IMG/VR virus record: IMGVR_UViG_3300022723_000184
Span: 96,001-160,000 of that record
Length of the DNA: 64,000 bases
DNA from: a virus
Lineage: Duplodnaviria > Caudoviricetes
Reading direction: 5' to 3' (one strand)
The notes under the pieces are model-generated. The model searched no databases. It worked only from the letters and a program-made list of their open reading frames with translations, and was not told where the DNA came from. This document shows positions 4,157 through 56,302 of the stretch, one piece after another (position 1 is the first letter of the stretch; each line of letters begins with the position of its first letter). Made by a program: the position numbers and the translations under genes.

Positions 4157-4874
4157 GACACCCGATATCGATTTCGACCAGGCGTATACGTCGTGGGCCT
4201 CGGACAGGTCTCCGCAGGCCAACGCCACGATCCTGAAGGTTCTCGACCCGGTGATCAGCCAGGCGGTGCAGACACACGTCGGTACGAGCAACCCGCTGCT
4301 CAAGGCCCGGGCCCGGAAGATGACGCTCGGCGCCCTGGGCTCGTTTGACCCGAAGCGGGGCCGGCTCAAGAGCCACTTGTATTCGCAGCTCCAAGGCCTC
4401 AAGCGGCAGCATGCCAAGCAGCAGAGCATCTTCCGGGTGCCCGAGCGGCTGATGTTGGACCGCCGAGGTCTGAAGGCGGCGCAGCAGGAACTGGAAGACG
4501 AACTGGGGCGGGAGCCGACGGACCAGGAGCTGGCGACGCGCACCGGGTTCTCGGTCGACCGGATCTCTCGCATCCGGCAGTTCAGCCCCGCGATGAGCGA
4601 GGGCTTCTTCTCGACGGTGGGCGAGGGCGGCATGGTCCCACAGTCCACGAGCCCGATCAGCCAGCAATCGTCGTGGGTCCAGGTGGTGTACGACGACCTG
4701 GGCCCGCTCGACAAGAAGATCATGGAGTGGACGCTGGGCCTCAATGGCCAACCCCGACTCTCGAACCAGGAGATTGCTTTGAGGCTCAAGAGGTCCCCGG
4801 GCGCCATCAGCCAGCGAAAGGCGCTGATCCAGCAGATGCTTGACGAGGAGCAGGACCTTTCCCCTTTTCTATGA
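4149..4874 (+). CDS. RNA polymerase sigma-70 family factor (FliA/SigF-like)
   Basis: Region 3 motif ELGREPTDQELATRTGFSVDRI; region 4 HTH LSNQEIALRLKRSPGAISQRK; region 2-like helix. Confidence 0.85.
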   Translation: MPETPDIDFDQAYTSWASDRSPQANATILKVLDPVISQAVQTHVGTSNPLLKARARKMTLGALGSFDPKRGRLKSHLYSQLQGLKRQHAKQQSIFRVPERLMLDRRGLKAAQQELEDELGREPTDQELATRTGFSVDRISRIRQFSPAMSEGFFSTVGEGGMVPQSTSPISQQSSWVQVVYDDLGPLDKKIMEWTLGLNGQPRLSNQEIALRLKRSPGAISQRKALIQQMLDEEQDLSPFL

Positions 4875-4882
4875 AACTATGC

Positions 4883-4917
4883 CAGCTCGTCGGCTTAAAA
4901 GCGAGACAAGGCGAGAC
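4883..4917 (+). repeat. Degenerate solitary CRISPR repeat A (sense, upstream of RBS)
   Basis: CAGCTCGTCGGCTTAAAAGCGAGACAAGGCGAGAC resembles repeat CTGCTCATCGGTTTAGAAGATGAGAC; stem CTCGTC/GGCGAG + AC; 31/35 identical to the copy at 33550 (-). Confidence 0.75.
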
Positions 4918-4931
4918 CTCTGAGGTAGACC

Positions 4932-5408
4932 ATGGGTACCGAACCGAAACCACAGTCCAAGGCCGAGATCGACTCGAACTTCGAGGGTCAGATCAAGAAG
5001 CTGCGTGAGCGGGCCAAGGACGAGGCCGACGCGAAGCTGGGCGGCGACAACGCCCAGTGGAACATCCCGGAGCTGGGCGATTGGGACGGCGACCTGTTCG
5101 CGGTCGAGGAGATCAGCGACGCGTTCAAGCGGGAAGAGGCCAACGAGAAGTTCGAGGAGGCGACCAAGGACTCCAGCTCGCCGGGTGTCGCCGGCGACCT
5201 CGGCGTTACCACACTGCAGGTTGACTACTTGGCCTGCATGGACCGGGCCTTCCGGGCCAGGCACACGATGCGACGGCCCCGGACCATGGCCCACATGACC
5301 GGCCGCCGCAAAGGCCACGGCAACGAGCGAGGTACGCTGACCCAGACGGCGTTGGAGTTCGCCCGCAACCTGCTTAAACAGGCCCAGGCGTCGGGAGGTG
5401 GTAGCTGA
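4932..5408 (+). CDS. Hypothetical protein in baseplate module
   Basis: RBS GAGG; coding-like composition; overlaps next start. Confidence 0.6.
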   Translation: MGTEPKPQSKAEIDSNFEGQIKKLRERAKDEADAKLGGDNAQWNIPELGDWDGDLFAVEEISDAFKREEANEKFEEATKDSSSPGVAGDLGVTTLQVDYLACMDRAFRARHTMRRPRTMAHMTGRRKGHGNERGTLTQTALEFARNLLKQAQASGGGS

Positions 5409-5939: not shown

Positions 5940-7643
5940 ATGACGATTCAGATCACCAACCTGGACGACGTGAACCAAGAGCTTGTCGCGGACAACCTCG
6001 ACGAGATCATCACGCGCCTGCAAGAAGACAACCCATCACTCGACCTCCGGCGAGGCGTCCTCAAGGACCTGCTTGCCGGCTACCACGCGTCGCTGAGCGC
6101 TGCCGAGCAGCAGACGTTGGCCCGGTACCTCAGCGCCCGGTCGCTGCAGCAGATCGAGGCCGATCCGACGCTGGCCGACGAGGGGGTGACCGACGACGTC
6201 CTCTCCAACTACCGGGTCACCCGGCAGCAGGGGGCTACGGCCCAGGGTGAGATCACGATCGTCGTCAGTCAGAACACCACGGTGGTCATCTCCGAGGGAG
6301 CCATCTTCGAGGCCGACGGGCAGCAGTTCGCTAGCGATTCGGTGTTCACGGCCAAGACCGAGGCCGCCCAGATCAACACGTCGACCGACCGCCTGCTTCA
6401 ACAGCGATCGGACGGCAACTGGTTCTTCACCATCACGGTGACCGCGGCCGAAGTCGGGACCGAGGGGAACATCGCCAAAGACACTTTCATGGTGCCGGCC
6501 GTGCCCCCGCCCAACTACGTCACGTCGTTCGCGACCAACGACTTCGTGAGCGGGACCAACACCGAGACCAACACCCAGCTGCTCCAACGATTGCAGGAGG
6601 GGCTCGCGGCCAGGGCCCCGTCCAACCGCACGAACATGAAGGGGATGCTCCGAGAGATCTCCGACGAGGCGTACGCCGGCAACCTGCATAGCTCGATCGT
6701 CGGGTTCGGCGACGAGGAGATGCTCCGTGACCAGCACACGATCTGGCCCGGCAGCCTGGGCGGGCGCTCCGACTGGTACATTCGCACGGTCGAGCAGCTG
6801 TTCCGGCTGACGCTGCAGCGGGAAGCCACGCTCGTCCAGATCGGGACCCGTGGCGAGCTATCGAATAACTGCTCGCCCGGAGGCCCCAACGCCTCGGACA
6901 TCGTAACGGTCTGGCAGTTCGCCCTGGCCCGCGACGACGCCCCCGGTTTCTACGAGATCCGGACGGTACGCCCCCTGGGATTCGATGAGGCCAGCGGCAG
7001 CTTCGAGATCCTGGCCGACATCCGGGGCCTGGACCTGACGGGCGACGGCTTCGTCCCGGACATCGACACCGTGGAGGAAGGGGCGTACAGCCGCTACCAG
7101 ACCACGGTCATCAAGTTCATTGACGACCAGGTTGACCCGACCACGGTCGCGGTCGGGGACACTAGCGCCTACGACGTGTCAGTGGCCATGATGCCCCAGA
7201 TCGGCGACATCCAGGACGACCTGAACACCCGCGACATCCGCAGCTACGGGTCCGACGTCCTGATCAAGGCCCCGGTACCCTGCTTCGTGTCGCTCTCGTT
7301 CACGATCAACAAACAGAACAACGTGCCGGACCCGGACCTCGATGCGATCAAGACGGCGTTGGCCAAAGAGGTCAACACGATTGCGTTCCTAGGCCGGCTG
7401 TACGCTTCGCAGCTGCACGACGTGATCCAAGGCCTGCTCGGAACCACGACCAGCGCCGGCAAGATCGACATGTTCGGTCGCCTGCGTTACCCGGACGGCA
7501 CGACCAAGTACGTCCGTGACTTTGAGGTGCTGGCGATCGACGGGCCGGCCGGGCAAATGGTCAGCCCGAAGACCGTGCAGTTTTATCTGGACGTCGAGGA
7601 CATCTCGATCTCGATCGCGACCAGCGTCCCCGTGCCCTCTTAA
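5940..7643 (+). CDS. Baseplate J-like protein
   Basis: ATAQGEITIV..VVISEGAIFEADGQQF and ITVTAAEVGTEGNI / GTNTETNTQLLQRL motifs of the baseplate J family. Confidence 0.8.
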   Translation: MTIQITNLDDVNQELVADNLDEIITRLQEDNPSLDLRRGVLKDLLAGYHASLSAAEQQTLARYLSARSLQQIEADPTLADEGVTDDVLSNYRVTRQQGATAQGEITIVVSQNTTVVISEGAIFEADGQQFASDSVFTAKTEAAQINTSTDRLLQQRSDGNWFFTITVTAAEVGTEGNIAKDTFMVPAVPPPNYVTSFATNDFVSGTNTETNTQLLQRLQEGLAARAPSNRTNMKGMLREISDEAYAGNLHSSIVGFGDEEMLRDQHTIWPGSLGGRSDWYIRTVEQLFRLTLQREATLVQIGTRGELSNNCSPGGPNASDIVTVWQFALARDDAPGFYEIRTVRPLGFDEASGSFEILADIRGLDLTGDGFVPDIDTVEEGAYSRYQTTVIKFIDDQVDPTTVAVGDTSAYDVSVAMMPQIGDIQDDLNTRDIRSYGSDVLIKAPVPCFVSLSFTINKQNNVPDPDLDAIKTALAKEVNTIAFLGRLYASQLHDVIQGLLGTTTSAGKIDMFGRLRYPDGTTKYVRDFEVLAIDGPAGQMVSPKTVQFYLDVEDISISIATSVPVPS

Positions 7644-28037: not shown

Positions 28038-28138
28038 AGTCACGCCTTTTGAACCGGTATGCCGGCATGTTGACACCAGTACGGCTACCTAAATAAACGT
28101 GTTTTTTGCGTCAAAATACATGCAGGCAAATTAGCCCG

Positions 28139-29194: not shown

Positions 29195-29929
29195 ATGAAG
29201 ACTCTGATCATCGCTATCGCTGCCGTGCTGCTCGTGTGTCCGGCGTTCGGGCAGGAGCAGGAGACGAAACTTCAATCACTCGGCGCTCGTCGGGCCATGG
29301 TCCGCTACAAGGCCAAGGTCGCGAACGCAGAGCGCCTGTACAAGGCCGCACTGTTGCGAGCGGCGAAAGACCTGAAAGAAGAACTTCAAGCCGACCTCAT
29401 CAAGGTTACGAAGACCGGCAACCTGGAGTCCGCCAACCAGGTGAAGGCCGAGCTGGATCGCATTCAGGCGGAAATCGAAAAGATGACCAACCCTGACGCT
29501 AAGCCGAGCAATACGCCCAGCGACTCCGTTGAAATCACTGAGGGCGATCCGAATGTCAAAGTCGGGAAACTCAAGCCCACTCGCGACTGGTGGACGCTCG
29601 CCCAACTCAAAGCAGGTGACAAAGTTTACTTCCGGGCGGCTGGAACATGGGAGATCTTTGGCGTCGGCACCTGCGGGCCTGACGGCGGCCGTGGAAGCAA
29701 GGGCGACAAGAACGACCCGCTCCCCGGCGCTCCAGTGGGCGCAATTCTCGGCAGGCTTCCTGGCTCCACCGACGAGAAGCGGGCTACTGGCTTTGTGATT
29801 GGGCGCAGCGCCGTATTCACTGCCAAGGAGGATGGCGCGTTCCAGCTTCGCGTCAACAAGACGAGCGGCTACATCTACAAGTGCGATGGCGAACTGGCCT
29901 ACAAAGTCAAGGTCGTTCCAGCCAACTGA
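29195..29929 (+). CDS. Secreted protein: signal peptide, coiled coil, C-terminal PA-IL/LecA-like lectin fold
   Basis: KAGDKVYFRAAGTW..CGPDG..PLPGAPVGAILG..FVIG..GAFQLRVN pattern. Confidence 0.6.
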   Translation: MKTLIIAIAAVLLVCPAFGQEQETKLQSLGARRAMVRYKAKVANAERLYKAALLRAAKDLKEELQADLIKVTKTGNLESANQVKAELDRIQAEIEKMTNPDAKPSNTPSDSVEITEGDPNVKVGKLKPTRDWWTLAQLKAGDKVYFRAAGTWEIFGVGTCGPDGGRGSKGDKNDPLPGAPVGAILGRLPGSTDEKRATGFVIGRSAVFTAKEDGAFQLRVNKTSGYIYKCDGELAYKVKVVPAN

Positions 29930-29932
29930 TCC

Positions 29933-29946
29933 AAAAAGTACTTTTT
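29933..29946. promoter_or_regulatory. Palindromic motif AAAAAGTACTTTTT
   Basis: Second copy; abuts solitary repeat E. Confidence 0.6.
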
Positions 29947-31252: not shown

Positions 31253-31970
31253 CGGCAACAACCTGCTGTACGACCAGTCGTTCCGGCGATCGTACCCCAA
31301 ACCCAAAAGCCCGAGATCCAGGCTGCAGCAACTGCTGCACAGCGAGGATACGTACGCGACGACACTGCTCGTCCTATTCGCTGACCGGTACGGGATGGAG
31401 GGCTTGGACTGGCACCCGGAGACCATCCGGCTCCAGCTCCAGAGCGACTTCGGGGTGCAGATCCCGAAGCACACGTTGGACAAGCTGATGGCCGCGATCG
31501 CAATCGTGACCACCGATGCGTTCTACAAGGACCTCACCAGGTTCATCGAGCTGTCGAACATCTTGGCCGGGGACGACTTTGACCCGACCGTGTTCGAGCC
31601 CGCGGACTCCGCCGAGATGGCATGGGCCGTGGCCGAGGCCACGCTGCTTTTTCCGCCGGAGGACGAGACGTTTTCAGACGAGATCAAGGGGTACGTCGGG
31701 TCCGTACTCCGCGACGAGGGCTACGTACGCCCGCCGAAAATCCTGAGCTTTGCGACCGACGCCGACTTCGCGTCCAAGGTCGAGCATGACTTCCAGGATG
31801 ACCCAGAGATGTTCCAGGCGGTATACGCCAACCAGTCGGCGAAGGCCGACGAGATCGACACCCTGGTCATGGACAACCTCCGTGAACTCTTCGGCCAGGT
31901 GACCTCCCTTCCCCTGAAAAACGGGGACACCAGCCAGATTGCCGAACGGATCAAGAAGACCATCGGCTGA
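31242..31970 (+). CDS. Hypothetical protein
   Basis: Overlaps previous gene; high GC3. Confidence 0.65.
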   Translation: MDPSGNNLLYDQSFRRSYPKPKSPRSRLQQLLHSEDTYATTLLVLFADRYGMEGLDWHPETIRLQLQSDFGVQIPKHTLDKLMAAIAIVTTDAFYKDLTRFIELSNILAGDDFDPTVFEPADSAEMAWAVAEATLLFPPEDETFSDEIKGYVGSVLRDEGYVRPPKILSFATDADFASKVEHDFQDDPEMFQAVYANQSAKADEIDTLVMDNLRELFGQVTSLPLKNGDTSQIAERIKKTIG

Positions 31971-32006
31971 CGGCTAAGAGAACAACCGAGCAACAAGGGG
32001 AACGCT

Positions 32007-32297
32007 ATGTGTGCGCCCACGCACGACAAGGCTCCCGGCGACGACGGCCTCTTCAAATTCGTTCGGGTGAACGGCGAGTACCGGTTCACCCTCGCGATGT
32101 TCGGAGGCCGCACCCACAAGTCCCTGGTCGGGGAAGGCGAGACCGCCGAATCGGCCGGGACCATGGACGTCCGGGAAGACTGTTGGAAGATGGCGGACTG
32201 GCGGTCAATGACGCTGGGCATCGGCGTAGACGGCCAGACGGACATAGACAACCTCACCGAGTTGCTCGGTAAACCGTACCGGGACAGGTGGAGTTGA
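32007..32297 (+). CDS. Hypothetical protein
   Basis: RBS AAGGGG. Confidence 0.6.
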   Translation: MCAPTHDKAPGDDGLFKFVRVNGEYRFTLAMFGGRTHKSLVGEGETAESAGTMDVREDCWKMADWRSMTLGIGVDGQTDIDNLTELLGKPYRDRWS

Positions 32298-32302
32298 CCT
32301 AG

Positions 32303-32572
32303 ATGAGCGCAGCCACGATACCCAACTACGGATGCTTCTCCGACGAAGCGAACCAGGACATCGACGAGATGATCGACGTTCTCATCGACAAGATCGAGGA
32401 CGGCGAGCTGACGACCCCTGAGAGACTCGTGGCCGAGATGGCCATGCGAATGAGTGAGATCGGCGACGGTGCGTGCGATACCGTTGTCAAAGAAACTGTG
32501 GCATACCACCTGCGAGATGCAATGGAAGAGCACAACATCCCTGAGTTCGGGATGCTCCTATACGGGTGGTGA
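32303..32572 (+). CDS. Hypothetical acidic protein
   Basis: Compact ORF in operon. Confidence 0.55.
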   Translation: MSAATIPNYGCFSDEANQDIDEMIDVLIDKIEDGELTTPERLVAEMAMRMSEIGDGACDTVVKETVAYHLRDAMEEHNIPEFGMLLYGW

Positions 32573-32635
32573 CCAGAGTCCAGGGCAGGACGCCCGCGAG
32601 GCCGTCCCAATGGACGGGAACAGGAAAGGGATGTA

Positions 32636-32875
32636 GTGCTAGTAGAAGGGCACATTCCACAGCAGAGCGTCGAGGAAGACGTCGAAGCAGCTACCCGCAG
32701 GGAAGCGGTCATCGAGTTCATGAAGCGCCACCCAGGTGTGTGCATAGAGAGCATCGATGGTGAAATGATCAGGGGTCTGTGCGAGAGCTGCAGCAAACCG
32801 ATCATGGAGAGCGACACCGAGTTCAACTACGACTCCGAAGGTGTCTATTGGTGTAAGGATGACTGCGAAACATGA
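32636..32875 (+). CDS. Hypothetical zinc-finger protein
   Basis: CESC..WCKDDC motifs. Confidence 0.55.
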   Translation: MLVEGHIPQQSVEEDVEAATRREAVIEFMKRHPGVCIESIDGEMIRGLCESCSKPIMESDTEFNYDSEGVYWCKDDCET

Positions 32876-33351
32876 GTCACGTTGTTGAGACCGAACCTGA
32901 CGGCCCTGACCAGGGCATCAGAGACCTATACGTGTTGAAGAAGGCCGCAGAACGCTGCGGCCTTGTCTTTAACGAGGGACAGACGCATTTCAGAACTTGG
33001 GCCGACGACCACAACGGTCGTCTGGTCGGGGACTGGCCGCTGCCTGAGGGCCGGACGCTGGACGACGTGGGTAAGTGCGCCCACGCCCTTAGCCTGCCGA
33101 ACGCCGCCAAGTCAGGCGTCGACAGCTACGAGATCGGCGTGGTGGAGTCTAAGAAACATCCGGGCACCTATTCGTTGATGTACGACTTCTGGCGTGGTGC
33201 CCTGGAGAAGAAGGCCGGCAACTGGTGCGAGGACCTGCTGATGTACTACCAGATGGAGGCCGCGAAGCTCGCGGCCGAGGAGCAGGACCATACGTACGTC
33301 GAAGAACAGCTGGCGGACGGGACCTTCGTGGCCCGGGTAGAGGTGAACTGA
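32872..33351 (+). CDS. DUF1257-like protein
   Basis: HALSL..YEIGV..YSLMYDFW pattern; synteny with DUF2997-like and Ycf46-like genes. Confidence 0.6.
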   Translation: MSHVVETEPDGPDQGIRDLYVLKKAAERCGLVFNEGQTHFRTWADDHNGRLVGDWPLPEGRTLDDVGKCAHALSLPNAAKSGVDSYEIGVVESKKHPGTYSLMYDFWRGALEKKAGNWCEDLLMYYQMEAAKLAAEEQDHTYVEEQLADGTFVARVEVN

Positions 33352-33545
33352 TGCCAGAGATCAAGTTCCACTTCCAGAAGGGCGGCAAGGTCAACATGGA
33401 GGTCAACGGGGTGAAGGGAGAAGGCTGCCGCACCCTGACCGCCGCGTACCGCGAGAAGATGCTCGGCATGGTGACGTCGGACGAGCCGACTGACGAGATG
33501 TACGAGGCCGAGACGGAAAACGAACAGGAGCACGAGCACGGATGA
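33351..33545 (+). CDS. DUF2997-like small protein
   Basis: GKVNMEVNGVKGEGCRTLT..LG motif. Confidence 0.65.
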   Translation: MPEIKFHFQKGGKVNMEVNGVKGEGCRTLTAAYREKMLGMVTSDEPTDEMYEAETENEQEHEHG

Positions 33546-33549
33546 AGCT

Positions 33550-33588
33550 GTCTCGCCTTGTCTTGCCTTTAAGTCGGCGAGCTGCATT
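33550..33588 (-). repeat. Degenerate solitary repeat F with own -10 box (TAGAAT, 33595-33600)
   Basis: - strand AATGCAG-CTCGCC-GACTTAAAGGCAAGACAA-GGCGAG-AC; 31/35 identical to copy A. Confidence 0.75.
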
Positions 33589-33615
33589 GTCCGTATTCTA
33601 CTCAGGTGAGTCTAG

Positions 33616-35139
33616 ATGAAACTTAAAAAAGCGATTGAGGAAGCGGTCTCTGCCGGCTATGGCGGGATCTGGGTCCGCTCCCCTGAACACGAAGACGCCA
33701 TCCGCCTGATCAGTGACGTGTGCAAAGAGTTCGGCTGGAACATGGCCATGTTCGACCTGGACCGTGGCTTCCGCATCGTTGGTGCGGAGGAGTCCCATGT
33801 CACCGAACCGAGCTTGGGCGCAGCGCTCAAGGCGTCGATCAAGTGGGTCGAGACGGCGGACGACGTGGAGACCGAGGACTCGCAGTACCTGCTGGTCGTT
33901 CGCAACCTTCACTTCAGTCTGAATAACAGCAAGACGATCCAGATCCTGCAGCACGTGATCGAGGAGGGCGCCGCCCTCGGCCTTCACGTGATCGGCCTGA
34001 CGCCTGAGGGCATCAAGCTGCCGCGGGAGCTGGACAATTACTTCTACCCCACGCACCACACGCTTCCGGACATGGGGGAGCTGTACGACCTGGTGCTTGA
34101 GGTGGACGACGAGATCAAGATGCCCGAGAAGGGATCCAAGGACGCTGAGCAGCTTTTGTCGAACGTGACGGGCATGACCCGTATGGCGGCAATGGGCGCC
34201 TACGGCATCTCCCTGGCCCGCCACAACAAGATGGACCCGGAGACGCTCAGCCAGGTCAAGTCCGAGACCATGGAGGCCGGCGGCCTGTTGTCGATCCACG
34301 AGTCCAAGCAGGGCTTCGAGGCGGTGGCCGGCTGCGACCACATCAAGGACTTCCTCAAAACCGGCATCCTCTCGCCGAATAAGACCGACGTCGTTCGGTT
34401 GCGTGCGGTGATGCTGCTGGGCTGGCCGGGCACCGGCAAGTCGTTCCTCACCCAGTGCCTGGGTAAGGAGACCACCCGGCCGACCGTGGAGGTCGACGTG
34501 GGGGCTCTCAAAGGGAGCCTGGTGGGCCAGACCGAGGAGAACACCCGCAGGGCCCTGGCGACACTGGACGCCATGGCCCCGTGCATCGCCTACTTCGACG
34601 AGATCGAGAAAGCGGTCACGACCAACGCCATGGACAGCGGGGCCAGCAGCGGACAGCTGGGGGCCCTTCTGACGTGGCTGAACGACCACACGTCAGACGT
34701 GGTCTGCGTGTTCACCTCGAACGACATCTCGCACCTGCCTCCTGAGTTCCTGCGGGCGGAGCGGATGGACGGGATCTTCTACTTCGGCCGGCCGACGCGT
34801 GAGGCGAAGGACCGGGCGTGGGAAATCTACGAGGCCAAGTTCGGTGTCTCGGGCGAGCGCCCGGACGACACGGACTGGACGCCGGCCGAGATCAAGACCT
34901 GTTGCCGGCTGGCCGCCCTGTTCGACCGGAGCCTGGTCGACTCGGCGAACCAGGTGGTGCCGGTCTATCGGACCAATGGCGAGAAGATCAACGCCCTCGA
35001 AGAGTGGGCCGAGGACCGATGCCTGAGCGCCGACTACCACGGCGTGTTCACGCGGAAGTCCCGTCCCAAGATGATCGAGCGGCCGGGCGGTGGCGAGAAG
35101 CCTCGCCGGAGGGTCCGCCGCAAGGCTGGGACCAAATAA
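33616..35139 (+). CDS. AAA+ ATPase, Ycf46-like
   Basis: Walker A GWPGTGKS; Walker B IAYFDEIEK; SRH TSNDISHLPPEFLRAERMD. Confidence 0.88.
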   Translation: MKLKKAIEEAVSAGYGGIWVRSPEHEDAIRLISDVCKEFGWNMAMFDLDRGFRIVGAEESHVTEPSLGAALKASIKWVETADDVETEDSQYLLVVRNLHFSLNNSKTIQILQHVIEEGAALGLHVIGLTPEGIKLPRELDNYFYPTHHTLPDMGELYDLVLEVDDEIKMPEKGSKDAEQLLSNVTGMTRMAAMGAYGISLARHNKMDPETLSQVKSETMEAGGLLSIHESKQGFEAVAGCDHIKDFLKTGILSPNKTDVVRLRAVMLLGWPGTGKSFLTQCLGKETTRPTVEVDVGALKGSLVGQTEENTRRALATLDAMAPCIAYFDEIEKAVTTNAMDSGASSGQLGALLTWLNDHTSDVVCVFTSNDISHLPPEFLRAERMDGIFYFGRPTREAKDRAWEIYEAKFGVSGERPDDTDWTPAEIKTCCRLAALFDRSLVDSANQVVPVYRTNGEKINALEEWAEDRCLSADYHGVFTRKSRPKMIERPGGGEKPRRRVRRKAGTK

Positions 35140-53595: not shown

Positions 53596-55365
53596 ATGGG
53601 ATTCAATAAGGACCCAGAGGCCCGCTGTGTGGTTTACCAGTACGGCGGCAAACATCCGACGGAAAACGAAGACGAAGCGATCAACCAGCTCGCCAAGGCG
53701 AACCGTTTTCGGAACCGGCTCGTTGAGTTGGAGCTACAACGACGTGAAGAATACCACGCTGCGTTCTCGGGTTACGGAGACCTGGCGGAGCCGTCAAATC
53801 AGCTTGAGACGCTCAACGAGCAGCTGACCGCTGCGGTGGCAGAACTTAAGGCGTGGAGACAATTGAACGGCACTCGAAGTCAACACCCGACGCTAACCCC
53901 GCAGATCGTTTCGCTACGGGCTCAGGCTCGCCAGCTACGGACACAGATCAAGTCGATCAAGGAAGCGGCCAAAGGCGATCCTACGGTGCAGGCGGCAATC
54001 GAAAAAGCAAACCAGCAGCACCGAGATCAGACCAAAGCTGCGTACGGCGCTGTAAGAGAATCGAACCCGGAGGCCGAGGACGCCAGAGACCGGCATGGGT
54101 TGTTCTGGGGAACGGCCCTCCTAGTTCAAAGGGCAGCGACACAGTTCCAGAAGGGCCCTCCCCCGAGGTACAAACGTTTCGACGGGACGGGAACTATCGG
54201 CGTGCAGCTGCAGAACGGGATGTCTGTGGAGGATCTGTTCACTCCGGGCGGCAGCGTCTGGATTGACCCCGTTCCTCCGGAGGCCTGGGACCCGCAGACG
54301 CCGAGAGGTCAAAGGCGAAAACTCGCAAGAACGATGCTACACATGCGGATCGGCGGGAAGCCGCAGGCCTGGGTGATTCTAAAGCTACCTGTCACCGTGC
54401 ACAGACCGCTGCCTGCAGGAAAACTTATCAAGTGGGTCACGGTCACTCGGCGTAAGTACGGTTCACAGGCGCGGTGGTATGTAAACGTCACGACGGATAT
54501 CAGGTCTGGTGGCACGCTTCACGATGATGTTGCGGCTGCCGGATTTGTGGGTGTCGACCTGGGTTTCAGGTTGTTCAAGCCCGCAGAAAGCAGCTCAGGC
54601 AAGCGATCGCTCCGAGTGGCTGTATGGGCCGGAGATGACGGGGAGACAGGCGAACTTCGCCTCGACGCGAGGTTTATGTCCTACATCTCAAAGGCCGACG
54701 GTTTGAGGTCGATCCGGGACAAGCGGCTTGATCAGATCAGAGCGGCGCTGCTTCCGTTGTGTGACGAGGCGGGTACGCCGGAGTGGTGGAAAGACGACAC
54801 TCAACACATGGCCAAATGGAGGTCTCCTCGAAAGCTGTATCACTTGCTCCACAAGTGGAAAGACAACAGGTGGGATGGCGACAAAACGCTGTTCGATCTG
54901 TTGGTTAAGTGGGTAGTTCAGGACCGTCACCTCCACGTGTGGGAAGCCAACAATCGCCGAAAAGTAGCGGCTCGTCGCCTGGACATGTACCGGAACCTGG
55001 CGGCCTCTTTGAGGCGCAAGTACGCGGTTATCGGGATCGAAGACATCGATTGGCGGATCTGGAGCAAGTTGGCCCTGCCCGAAGAAGAGGAGACCAAGTC
55101 AAAGAAGTTCCGTGTTCAAAAGAAACATGCGGCGGTCGGTCTGCTTGCAGAGACGCTGTCGAATTGCGGGGCACAGGTTGTACGTTTGGATCCCGCTTAC
55201 ACGACGAAGCGGTGCAACGCCTGCGGCAAGATCACCGAATTTGACGCTGACCGGCACCTGCGACATACGTGCGAACATTGCCATGCGGAGTGGGACCAAG
55301 ACTACAATGCGGCAAAGAACCTGCAAGACATGGCGAGCGGCAACGCCGTAACGCAAACCGCGTAG
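53596..55365 (+). CDS. cas12m: Type V-M CRISPR effector Cas12m-like (589 aa)
   Basis: LFWGT, RYKRFDGTGTIGVQLQ, VHRPLP, KWRSPRKL, EANNRRK motifs as in Cas12m; RuvC D321/E482/D569; CNAC..CEHC zinc finger; adjacent array. Confidence 0.88.
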   Translation: MGFNKDPEARCVVYQYGGKHPTENEDEAINQLAKANRFRNRLVELELQRREEYHAAFSGYGDLAEPSNQLETLNEQLTAAVAELKAWRQLNGTRSQHPTLTPQIVSLRAQARQLRTQIKSIKEAAKGDPTVQAAIEKANQQHRDQTKAAYGAVRESNPEAEDARDRHGLFWGTALLVQRAATQFQKGPPPRYKRFDGTGTIGVQLQNGMSVEDLFTPGGSVWIDPVPPEAWDPQTPRGQRRKLARTMLHMRIGGKPQAWVILKLPVTVHRPLPAGKLIKWVTVTRRKYGSQARWYVNVTTDIRSGGTLHDDVAAAGFVGVDLGFRLFKPAESSSGKRSLRVAVWAGDDGETGELRLDARFMSYISKADGLRSIRDKRLDQIRAALLPLCDEAGTPEWWKDDTQHMAKWRSPRKLYHLLHKWKDNRWDGDKTLFDLLVKWVVQDRHLHVWEANNRRKVAARRLDMYRNLAASLRRKYAVIGIEDIDWRIWSKLALPEEEETKSKKFRVQKKHAAVGLLAETLSNCGAQVVRLDPAYTTKRCNACGKITEFDADRHLRHTCEHCHAEWDQDYNAAKNLQDMASGNAVTQTA

Positions 55366-55439: not shown

Positions 55440-55502
55440 CGATCGAACCGCTCGAAAACGGCCTGATAACCATGTACGCACGTGTAGGTTATAATGCCGC
55501 GG
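55440..55502 (+). promoter_or_regulatory. CRISPR leader with -10 box TATAAT (55490-55495)
   Basis: TATAAT 7 nt before repeat 1; same end motif at solitary repeats C and G. Confidence 0.7.
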
Positions 55503-56247
55503 ATCGTAATACCTGCTCATCGGTTTAGAAGATGAGACGCGGCATTGATTGCCTTCTTGAGTTGCTGCTCCAACATCGTAATACCTGCTCATCGGTTTAG
55601 AAGATGAGACATCGCCGCATCGCTGGAAGCGGGCGTGGCGTCGGCGGATCGTAATACCTGCTCATCGGTTTAGAAGATGAGACCTTTCTCTGTGTCCGAG
55701 ATAACGGGGTCACTAATGTCATCGTAATACCTGCTCATCGGTTTGGAAGATGAGACAAGCATCCGAGCAGCCGCTACAAGGACAAGATCGGCATCGTAAT
55801 ACCTGCTCATCGGTTTAGAAGATGAGACTAGTCGGGCAATTGCTCGAACGGCACAGAGATATCGTCATCGTAATACCTGCTCATCGGTTTAGAAGATGAG
55901 ACGCTTACCGGTGGCCGAGGCCAAGGCGCGATGGAGAACATCGTAATACCTGCTCATCGGTTTAGAAGATGAGACACGGTGGATCCGGTCGAGCGGCTGA
56001 TCCTTCACATCATCGTAATACCTGCTCATCGGTTTAGAAGATGAGACCCGGTGATCGACGCGGTCCTCGAGAACGCCGAGGACATCGTAATACCTGCTCA
56101 TCGGTTTAGAAGATGAGACAAGTGGATCAGGTTCTTCTCATCGTAATACCTGCTCATTGGTTTAGAAGATGAGACGCGGACTGCCCCGAGATGCGGCGCC
56201 GGCTGTGGGTAATCGTAATACCTGCTCATCGGTTTGGAAGATGAGAC
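55503..56247 (+). CRISPR. CRISPR array: 11 x 36-nt repeats ATCGTAATACCTGCTCATCGGTTTAGAAGATGAGAC, 10 spacers
   Basis: Repeats start at 55503, 55575, 55648, 55721, 55793, 55867, 55940, 56012, 56084, 56140, 56212; spacers 36-38 nt except spacer 9 (20 nt); 3' hairpin CTCATC/GATGAG + AC. Confidence 0.99.
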
Positions 56248-56302
56248 GAAGATGAAACAGAAGGCGAGACAACGACTTGATCGCTAAGGATGGAGAAAAT
56301 AG

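Follow-up and report, generated by a model that had tools for sequence, protein, structure and literature searches.

Comparison with related phage loci shows that the hairpin between the DUF2997 and AAA+ ATPase genes of this phage, here called repeat F, belongs to a 65-nt cassette which, on the grounds of its sequence, consists of a leader and a single repeat of the phage's own type V-M (Cas12m) system, and the insertion of which, accompanied by a 9-bp duplication, split the overlap between the stop codon of the first gene and the start codon of the second. The window analysed comprises 64,000 nt (bases 96001-160000) of a single viral contig of 201,946 bp, which is ~90 % complete by the record's own estimate. 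Among the solitary Cas12m repeats of the phage, F has the clearest insertion history and shows most cleanly how such solitary repeats may originate, namely by precise insertion behind a PAM-like TTN, whereby the junction sequence of the phage itself would become a guide. Known solitary CRISPR repeats of viruses serve either as decoys or for regulation by way of hijacked host Cas proteins, and the present phage has its own effector together with about 18 single repeats.

The DUF2997 gene (64 aa; 33351..33545, plus strand; Pfam PF11211, E=6e-11) and the AAA+ ATPase gene (507 aa; 33616..35139, plus strand; Pfam PF00004, E=9e-21; 881 homologues) are separated by a gap of 70 nt. Read on the minus strand, this region comprises TAGAAT, 13 nt, CTCGCC, an 18-nt loop, GGCGAG and AC, followed by AGCTTCATCCGTGCTCGTGC, which extends back into the end of the DUF2997 gene. 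Repeat F (33550..33593, minus strand) is classified by covariance model R1 and alignment A1 as a degenerate Cas12m repeat, a putative crRNA scaffold with a shortened 5' part. Its 5' stem arm CTCGCC (33576..33581, minus strand), directly preceded by the family-invariant G, and its 3' stem arm GGCGAG (33552..33557, minus strand), followed by the invariant AC (33551-33550), form six perfect pairs. The 3' arm is the outer copy of a duplicated arm, the inner copy of which, GCAAG (33562-33566), has lost full pairing, and the duplication accounts for the loop being 18 instead of 9 nt in length. Repeat A (4883-4917, plus strand), at a distance of 28,633 nt, is identical to F at 31/35 positions, including the duplicated 3' arm GCRAGAC AAG GCGAGAC. 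These measurements bear out a sequence-only reading of this DNA, which had described a minus-strand box in front of the hairpin (here located as TAGAAT at 33600-33595, then the repeat at 33593-33550), a perfect CTCGCC/GGCGAG stem, and 31/35 identity to repeat A, duplicated arm included, 28.6 kb away.

The handle of F departs from the Cas12m geometry (a stem of ~6 bp, a loop of 8-9 nt, ~30 nt in total) in the length of its loop and in the loss of ~7 nt of the 5' part, and its covariance-model score is the second-lowest among the promoter-bearing copies. It scores 34.1 bits (E=1.6e-6) with model R1, a value somewhat favoured by the inclusion of F among the ten training sequences of the model. 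As the 32-mer of F is matched by no shuffled window, the repeat is not a chance hairpin. Its fold is no better than that of shuffled sequence (z = -0.2 and -1.1 on the two strands), and the support for the hairpin comes from covariation, not from energy.

The inserted cassette (33550..33614) comprises the repeat, the -10 box and a tail with a new ribosome-binding site, and is missing from the three nearest relatives, L003, L004 and L005 (alignment A3). In L003, the closest relative found (AAA protein 69 % identical), the junction reads GAGCAGCAATGAAGCTGAAAC, with the DUF2997 stop codon overlapping the AAA start codon (ATGA), while the junction is a TAATG overlap in L004 (AAA protein 53 % identical) and a 7-nt gap in L005 (44 % identical). 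The cassette lies between the two copies of the 9-bp duplication. The left copy, GATGAAGCT (33541..33549, plus strand), contains the DUF2997 stop codon TGA and corresponds to the first 9 nt of the minus-strand guide, and the right copy, GATGAAACT (33615..33623, plus strand), contains the AAA ATPase start codon. Since it abolished translational coupling, the insertion has certainly rewired AAA expression, and the lost coupling is replaced by a Shine-Dalgarno sequence, AGGTGA (33604..33609, plus strand), within the cassette and 6 nt before the AAA ATG. No repeat was found by the covariance model anywhere in L003, L004 and L005, and 80 additional viral relatives had no repeat-like element at a distance of up to 2.5 kb from the AAA start; a repeat occurs at this junction in 0/83 related loci. 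The A/F-type repeat pattern gave zero matches elsewhere in viral or metagenome contigs, F being confined to the present genome, and no match to the canonical-repeat pattern was obtained in viral contigs. Close relatives of the phage were detected neither by megablast of 12 kb against phages nor by a single-protein scan of metagenome contigs. In Planctomycetota genomes (for instance Rhodopirellula, Rubinisphaera and Fuerstiella), homologues of the AAA ATPase (~40 % identity) beside DUF2997 genes are common, and they also occur in many viral contigs of ~200 kb, a distribution which hints at the host lineage and the phage family. An epimerase and a nucleotidyl-transferase gene (~2 kb; L003:5136-7117) are located between the L003 homologues of two adjacent window genes (31970-32636), and are lacking from the window.

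The effector and array of the system lie in the same window. The cas12m gene (589 aa; 53596..55365, plus strand) encodes a protein that matches a solved Cas12m (PDB 23vw; E=5.9e-67) and Cas12m2 (8hhl; 1.5e-26), has the D-E-D RuvC residues and is the single Cas12/TnpB-like protein of the genome; Cas12m descends from TnpB (PMC10442227). The CRISPR array (11 repeats of 36 nt; 55503..56247, plus strand) has a leader with the -10 sequence TATAAT at 55490-55495. One of its spacers (56120-56139) is just 20 nt in length (56-nt repeat spacing), and 15 nt past the last repeat an A/F-type arm, AAGGCGAGAC (56248-56270), is possibly the remnant of a terminal degenerate repeat. Covariance model R1, built from ten family members and run over the whole genome with a cut-off of E<0.01, recovered the 11 array repeats and 18 solitary copies. 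Across 19 distinct copies, in an alignment fitted to the model, 98.2 % of the cells of the 6-bp stem are paired and 5/6 pairs have changed on both sides, a result equalled by 0/500 shuffles. The base preceding the stem (G) and the two that follow it (AC) do not vary within the family and parallel the G(-23)/A(-2) contact of the Cas12m2 scaffold, which has a 6-bp helix and of which the loop bases contact the protein (PMC10442227). The solitary copies adjoin ~18 unrelated genes and fall into two classes, the first (including A) being sense-oriented and separated by a few bases from a ribosome-binding site downstream, and the second (including F) having a -10 box of their own and mostly opposing the neighbouring genes. 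The earlier observation that the same variant is used sense in one place and antisense in another agrees with F and A being sisters that are oppositely oriented with respect to the genes. A second sister pair of this kind is formed by two solitary cassettes 2.4 kb apart (L006:5222-5257 and L006:7620-7655; genome 5.2 and 7.6 kb), which have the same repeat and leader (TTGAAAGTTATACTGACCAGG plus repeat), one of them with a 7-bp duplication, CTCCTAC, behind TTA. Searches of the genome for a Y1 transposase (TnpA), Cas1, reverse transcriptase or rve integrase found none.

The -10-like box of F, TAGAAT (33595..33600, minus strand), keeps 5/6 consensus positions and is homologous to the TATAAT of the array leader (alignment A6). 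Because alignment places TAGAATACGG of F opposite TATAATGCCGCGG, which is the array leader's -10 region, and opposite TATAATACCGAGG / TACAATACCGAGG of the leader-repeat cassettes D (28139) and G (40027), a promoter-driven minus-strand RNA from F is a reasonable expectation. The sigma-70 consensus scan found no -35/-10 pair at F, and the predicted promoter consists of the -10 box only. The earlier description of F as promoter-driven is retained as far as the -10 homology goes, and not as regards a complete -35/-10 pair. With flanks read by eye, a TATAAT-like box (5 or 6 of 6 positions) is found just upstream of 7/18 solitary copies, F included, and in the array leader. To judge by these alignments, F is a leader-plus-repeat unit minus ~7 nt of the 5' part of the repeat.

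Insertion behind TTN can be followed at two further copies. Repeat A is part of a 43-nt insertion without leader (4875..4917, plus strand), which lies in the 5' UTR of the gene at 4932 between CTATGA (4869-4874) and CTCTGA (4918-4923), with TTT (4866-4868) ahead of the former. Flanks of CTMTGA after TTT had been predicted from the window alone, and the empty site in L095 (sigma factor 77 % identical) reads TTT CTCTGA GGTA. At the copy C9824, comparison with L097 delimits a 45-nt element with a 6-bp duplication of GCTAGA behind TTA. A 10-bp flanking match at this copy (9/10, implying a 68-nt element) was dropped, the exact 6-bp solution alone restoring the 22-nt intergenic length of L097 and keeping the start codon. 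Flanking direct repeats with a score of at least 6 occur at eight of the 18 solitary copies, against 3.3 expected, and TT is present at -3,-2 before 5/8 of these, against a null of 3.1 % (binomial P=1.5e-6). Of these five, the match at repeat A, located 133 nt upstream, is probably due to chance, but the true duplication at A also follows TTT. The inserted DNA ends exactly at the last base of the repeat in every resolved case, while its 5' extent is variable (31 to 65 nt). For F, A and C9824, the uninterrupted allele would read 5'-TTN and then the guide sequence, a placement that fits the PAM type of other, characterised Cas12m proteins (TTN, YTN, YTTS and TTV; PMC10442227; bioRxiv 10.64898/2026.03.26.714355).

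The putative 20-nt guide of F, AGCTTCATCCGTGCTCGTGC (33530..33549, minus strand), matches the reconstructed uninterrupted junction at 19/20 positions. No second target was found in the 202-kb genome at <=4 mismatches in 20, its own locus being the sole full match. On the guide strand, the locus without the insertion would read TTA and then AGTTTCATCCGTGC..., the TTA (33624..33626, minus strand) being a PAM-like trinucleotide that would abut the guide match in the uninterrupted allele and that lies within AAA codons 3-4 (Leu-Lys). Its equivalent is TTC in L003 and TTG in L005, TT being kept at this position because it is the complement of a conserved AAA lysine codon. The L003 junction matches the guide at 17/20 positions behind TTC, with the three mismatches at guide positions 9-11. 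The guide differs from the phage's own reconstructed allele at position 3, and even one mismatch in the 12 nt next to the PAM is not tolerated by PmCas12m (10.64898/2026.03.26.714355). At F's own locus, the repeat end GAC occupies the PAM position, and at the PAM-side copy of the duplication just nine bases match the guide. A comparison of the whole array with the phage collection in sensitive mode gave no protospacer match for the array spacers.

Tentatively, repeat F may be read as a Cas12m guide directed against related phages without the insertion. The minus-strand RNA would start ~7 nt after TAGAAT, near 33588 and six or seven bases before the stem, and this would place its 5' end roughly at that of the ordered portion of the Cas12m2 handle (PMC10442227). 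It would fold into the handle and continue into ~20 nt of the pre-insertion junction as guide. Cas12m loaded with this guide should be unable to bind the carrier's DNA, because the repeat end fills the PAM position at the full match and the PAM-side copy offers only its nine bases. Any related genome with the uninterrupted junction would be bound, since 5'-TTN directly precedes the guide match there. Cas12m at such a junction would block transcription or replication of the co-infecting relative and, were the D-E-D enzyme to cut DNA, could also favour the copying of the cassette into this genome. A polymerase that meets a dCas12a complex from the PAM-distal side encounters it in the weaker blocking orientation. 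RNA polymerase on the operon would meet the F-guided complex from this side, which counts against strong blocking. If the guide is used, the phage could distinguish itself from close kin with no need to acquire spacers, in a natural parallel to TnpB elements that target their empty sites. It is somewhat unlikely that the solitary cassettes as a whole, F among them, form a self-marking system, in which insertion would part the TTN PAM from the protospacer in the carrier and express that protospacer as a guide, with uninterrupted co-infecting relatives being silenced. Were this the case, an RNA-guided exclusion or homing system would have arisen from single CRISPR repeats, and nicking or cutting by the D-E-D Cas12m, if it occurs, could convert the relative to the inserted allele in place of silencing it.

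As to the origin of F, leader, repeat and spacer may have been copied from an array into the homologous genomic site, in a templated insertion of which one side was joined through spacer/protospacer homology and the other illegitimately. Such an insertion would account for the TTN, for a repeat that ends flush with the junction, and for the differences between copies in 5' extent and in duplication length (6-9 bp). The TTN and the flush junction could in that event reflect the mode of insertion and not a present function. It is nevertheless unlikely that F is an inert scar with no present function, left by illegitimate or spacer/protospacer-templated copying of leader-repeat DNA or by mobile-element activity, and tolerated as it landed between genes and brought or gained a ribosome-binding site. 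The presence of F in this genome only and its degraded handle, with a low score, a long loop and a truncated 5' part, are consistent with such a scar, and a PAM-selected spacer beside a repeat as donor would make the TTN and the flush junction automatic. Nor does the genome hold a transposase, integrase, reverse transcriptase or Cas1 that would hint at organised mobility. However, the outer stem of F is perfect, where repeat A has one G-U pair, the invariant G and AC are retained, the -10 box still keeps most of the consensus, and the 18 copies with a covarying stem argue for selection.

The sequence-only reading had located the guide antisense to the end of the DUF2997-like gene and the box 15 nt from the AAA ATPase start. 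Both placements are correct, the 20 nt extending from the final codons through the stop codon to 4 nt past it, and the ATG lying at 33616. The suggestion that this arrangement is the point of the element is not upheld. The alignments indicate that the guide is whatever DNA adjoined the insertion site, the antisense relation being a by-product of insertion site and orientation. It is improbable that F serves as a local regulator, the minus-strand promoter and antisense RNA of which would lower DUF2997 and/or AAA expression through collision at the AAA start, antisense pairing or Cas12m binding. The short distance from the -10 box to the AAA ATG, the complementarity of the RNA to the DUF2997 3' end and the rewiring of AAA expression through lost translational coupling would suit this role. 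Against it, the antisense relation follows automatically from where and how the cassette was inserted, sister A is in sense orientation, copies occur at ~18 unrelated genes, and none of the 83 related loci needs such a regulator. Characterised Cas12m binds PAM-flanked double-stranded DNA (PMC10442227, PMC11013384), and the F locus offers GAC at this position; RNA targeting or collateral RNA cleavage by Cas12m is not known (PMC11013384). Self-regulation through a second genomic target was ruled out, the guide having no match at <=4 mismatches. Regulation of DUF2997 or AAA by Cas12m binding to DNA is unsupported, since the guide would find no second target and its own locus lacks a PAM.

A function of the hairpin in the plus-strand operon transcript, as a spacer or stability element or by sequestering the new ribosome-binding site (CUCGCC pairing with GGUGAG), is very improbable. 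The perfect inverted repeat folds in plus-strand RNA too, with the 5' arm paired to the Shine-Dalgarno region in the structure of minimum energy. This fold is not superior to that of shuffled sequence (z = -1.1), and the conserved G and AC beside the stem, like the leader homology, are features specific to the minus strand. A terminator reading of the hairpin was ruled out, there being no T-tract. It is very improbable that F is a decoy, in which a solitary repeat RNA would soak up Cas12m (the phage's own, for tuning, or that of a host or rival) in the manner of an RNA anti-CRISPR. In favour of a decoy, the architecture of a promoter and single repeat on a virus recalls solitary repeat units and Racrs (PMC10651486). 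Against it, a matching cas12m and array are present on the same phage, and a decoy gives no reason for the steady TTN placement or for the flush junction with target-like sequence.

Read as a putative guide against uninterrupted relatives, F shares with type V-M repeats and the Cas12m scaffold (Cas12m2, GoCas12m and PmCas12m; PMC10442227, PMC11013384, bioRxiv 10.64898/2026.03.26.714355) a cognate cas12m in the same genome, a 6-bp stem, conserved G and AC flanks, a guide 3' of the handle, and a TTN that fits the known PAM type. It differs from these in being solitary, in its loop (18 nt vs ~9) and shorter 5' part, and in that its guide is its own flanking DNA and not an acquired spacer. As in the viral solitary repeat units and Racrs (PMC10651486; review PMC11656645), one CRISPR repeat is carried on a virus behind a predicted promoter. 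Racrs, however, mimic host repeats and have no cas linkage, while the virus carrying F has a matching effector, an array and 18 copies; the solitary copies of this phage are inserted after TTN with short duplications, and there is no indication of an inhibitory role. The CreR/CreA/crlRNA and viral Cracr systems (bioRxiv 10.1101/2023.03.03.530964, 10.1101/2024.10.29.618823) likewise combine a degenerate repeat with a short guide, and there the Cas effector silences and does not cleave. The guides of those systems match a promoter that has a PAM beside it and belongs to a cas, toxin or defence gene, whereas the F guide has no second genomic match. The omega-RNA logic of TnpB/IS200-IS605 elements, said to have been set out by Meers et al. 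in 2023, resembles F in that the RNA scaffold ends at the element boundary, the flanking DNA is the guide, the targeting motif lies across the element and the empty site is the sole target. Unlike in TnpB/IS200-IS605 elements, no TnpA is present in this genome, F has a 9-bp duplication where IS200/IS605 insertions have none, and many cassettes are served by an effector encoded at a distance of 20 kb. An origin via spacer/protospacer homology, as proposed for F, also recalls the spacer-protospacer recombination between arrays and phages that Varble et al. reportedly described in 2019. Virus-borne CRISPR mini-arrays, as outlined in the summary of Medvedeva et al. 2019 in PMC11656645, are used against related viruses, and the target proposed for F is similarly a close relative of the carrier. 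In comparison with the mini-arrays as there outlined, F has one repeat and not a repeat-spacer-repeat unit, its guide is colinear with the carrier genome, and self-immunity would result from the insertion itself.

Further features were observed at other solitary copies of the phage. The 'guide' of cassette D (28091-28138) is a conserved element located after a stop codon and before an intrinsic terminator ending TTTTTCTTTTCAC. A second copy of this element in the same genome (L012:9320-9355, ~189.1 kb; 29/36 identical) has no cassette and has GAG at the PAM position, and a further copy occurs in the relative L003 (L003:772-816). The weak family member u28039 (28039-28074; 20.7 bits) represents extra DNA in comparison with L003, the distance from the stop codon to the conserved element being ~50 nt vs ~5 nt in L003. 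An AT-rich palindrome, AAAAAGTACTTTTT (29920-29943; L008 ~7010-7035, genome ~46.8 kb), lies just upstream of the solitary copies E29979 and u46773, and the similar AAAGTGCTTTT precedes u53583. Such a sequence may be a promoter or protein-binding element of the phage's own transcription system.
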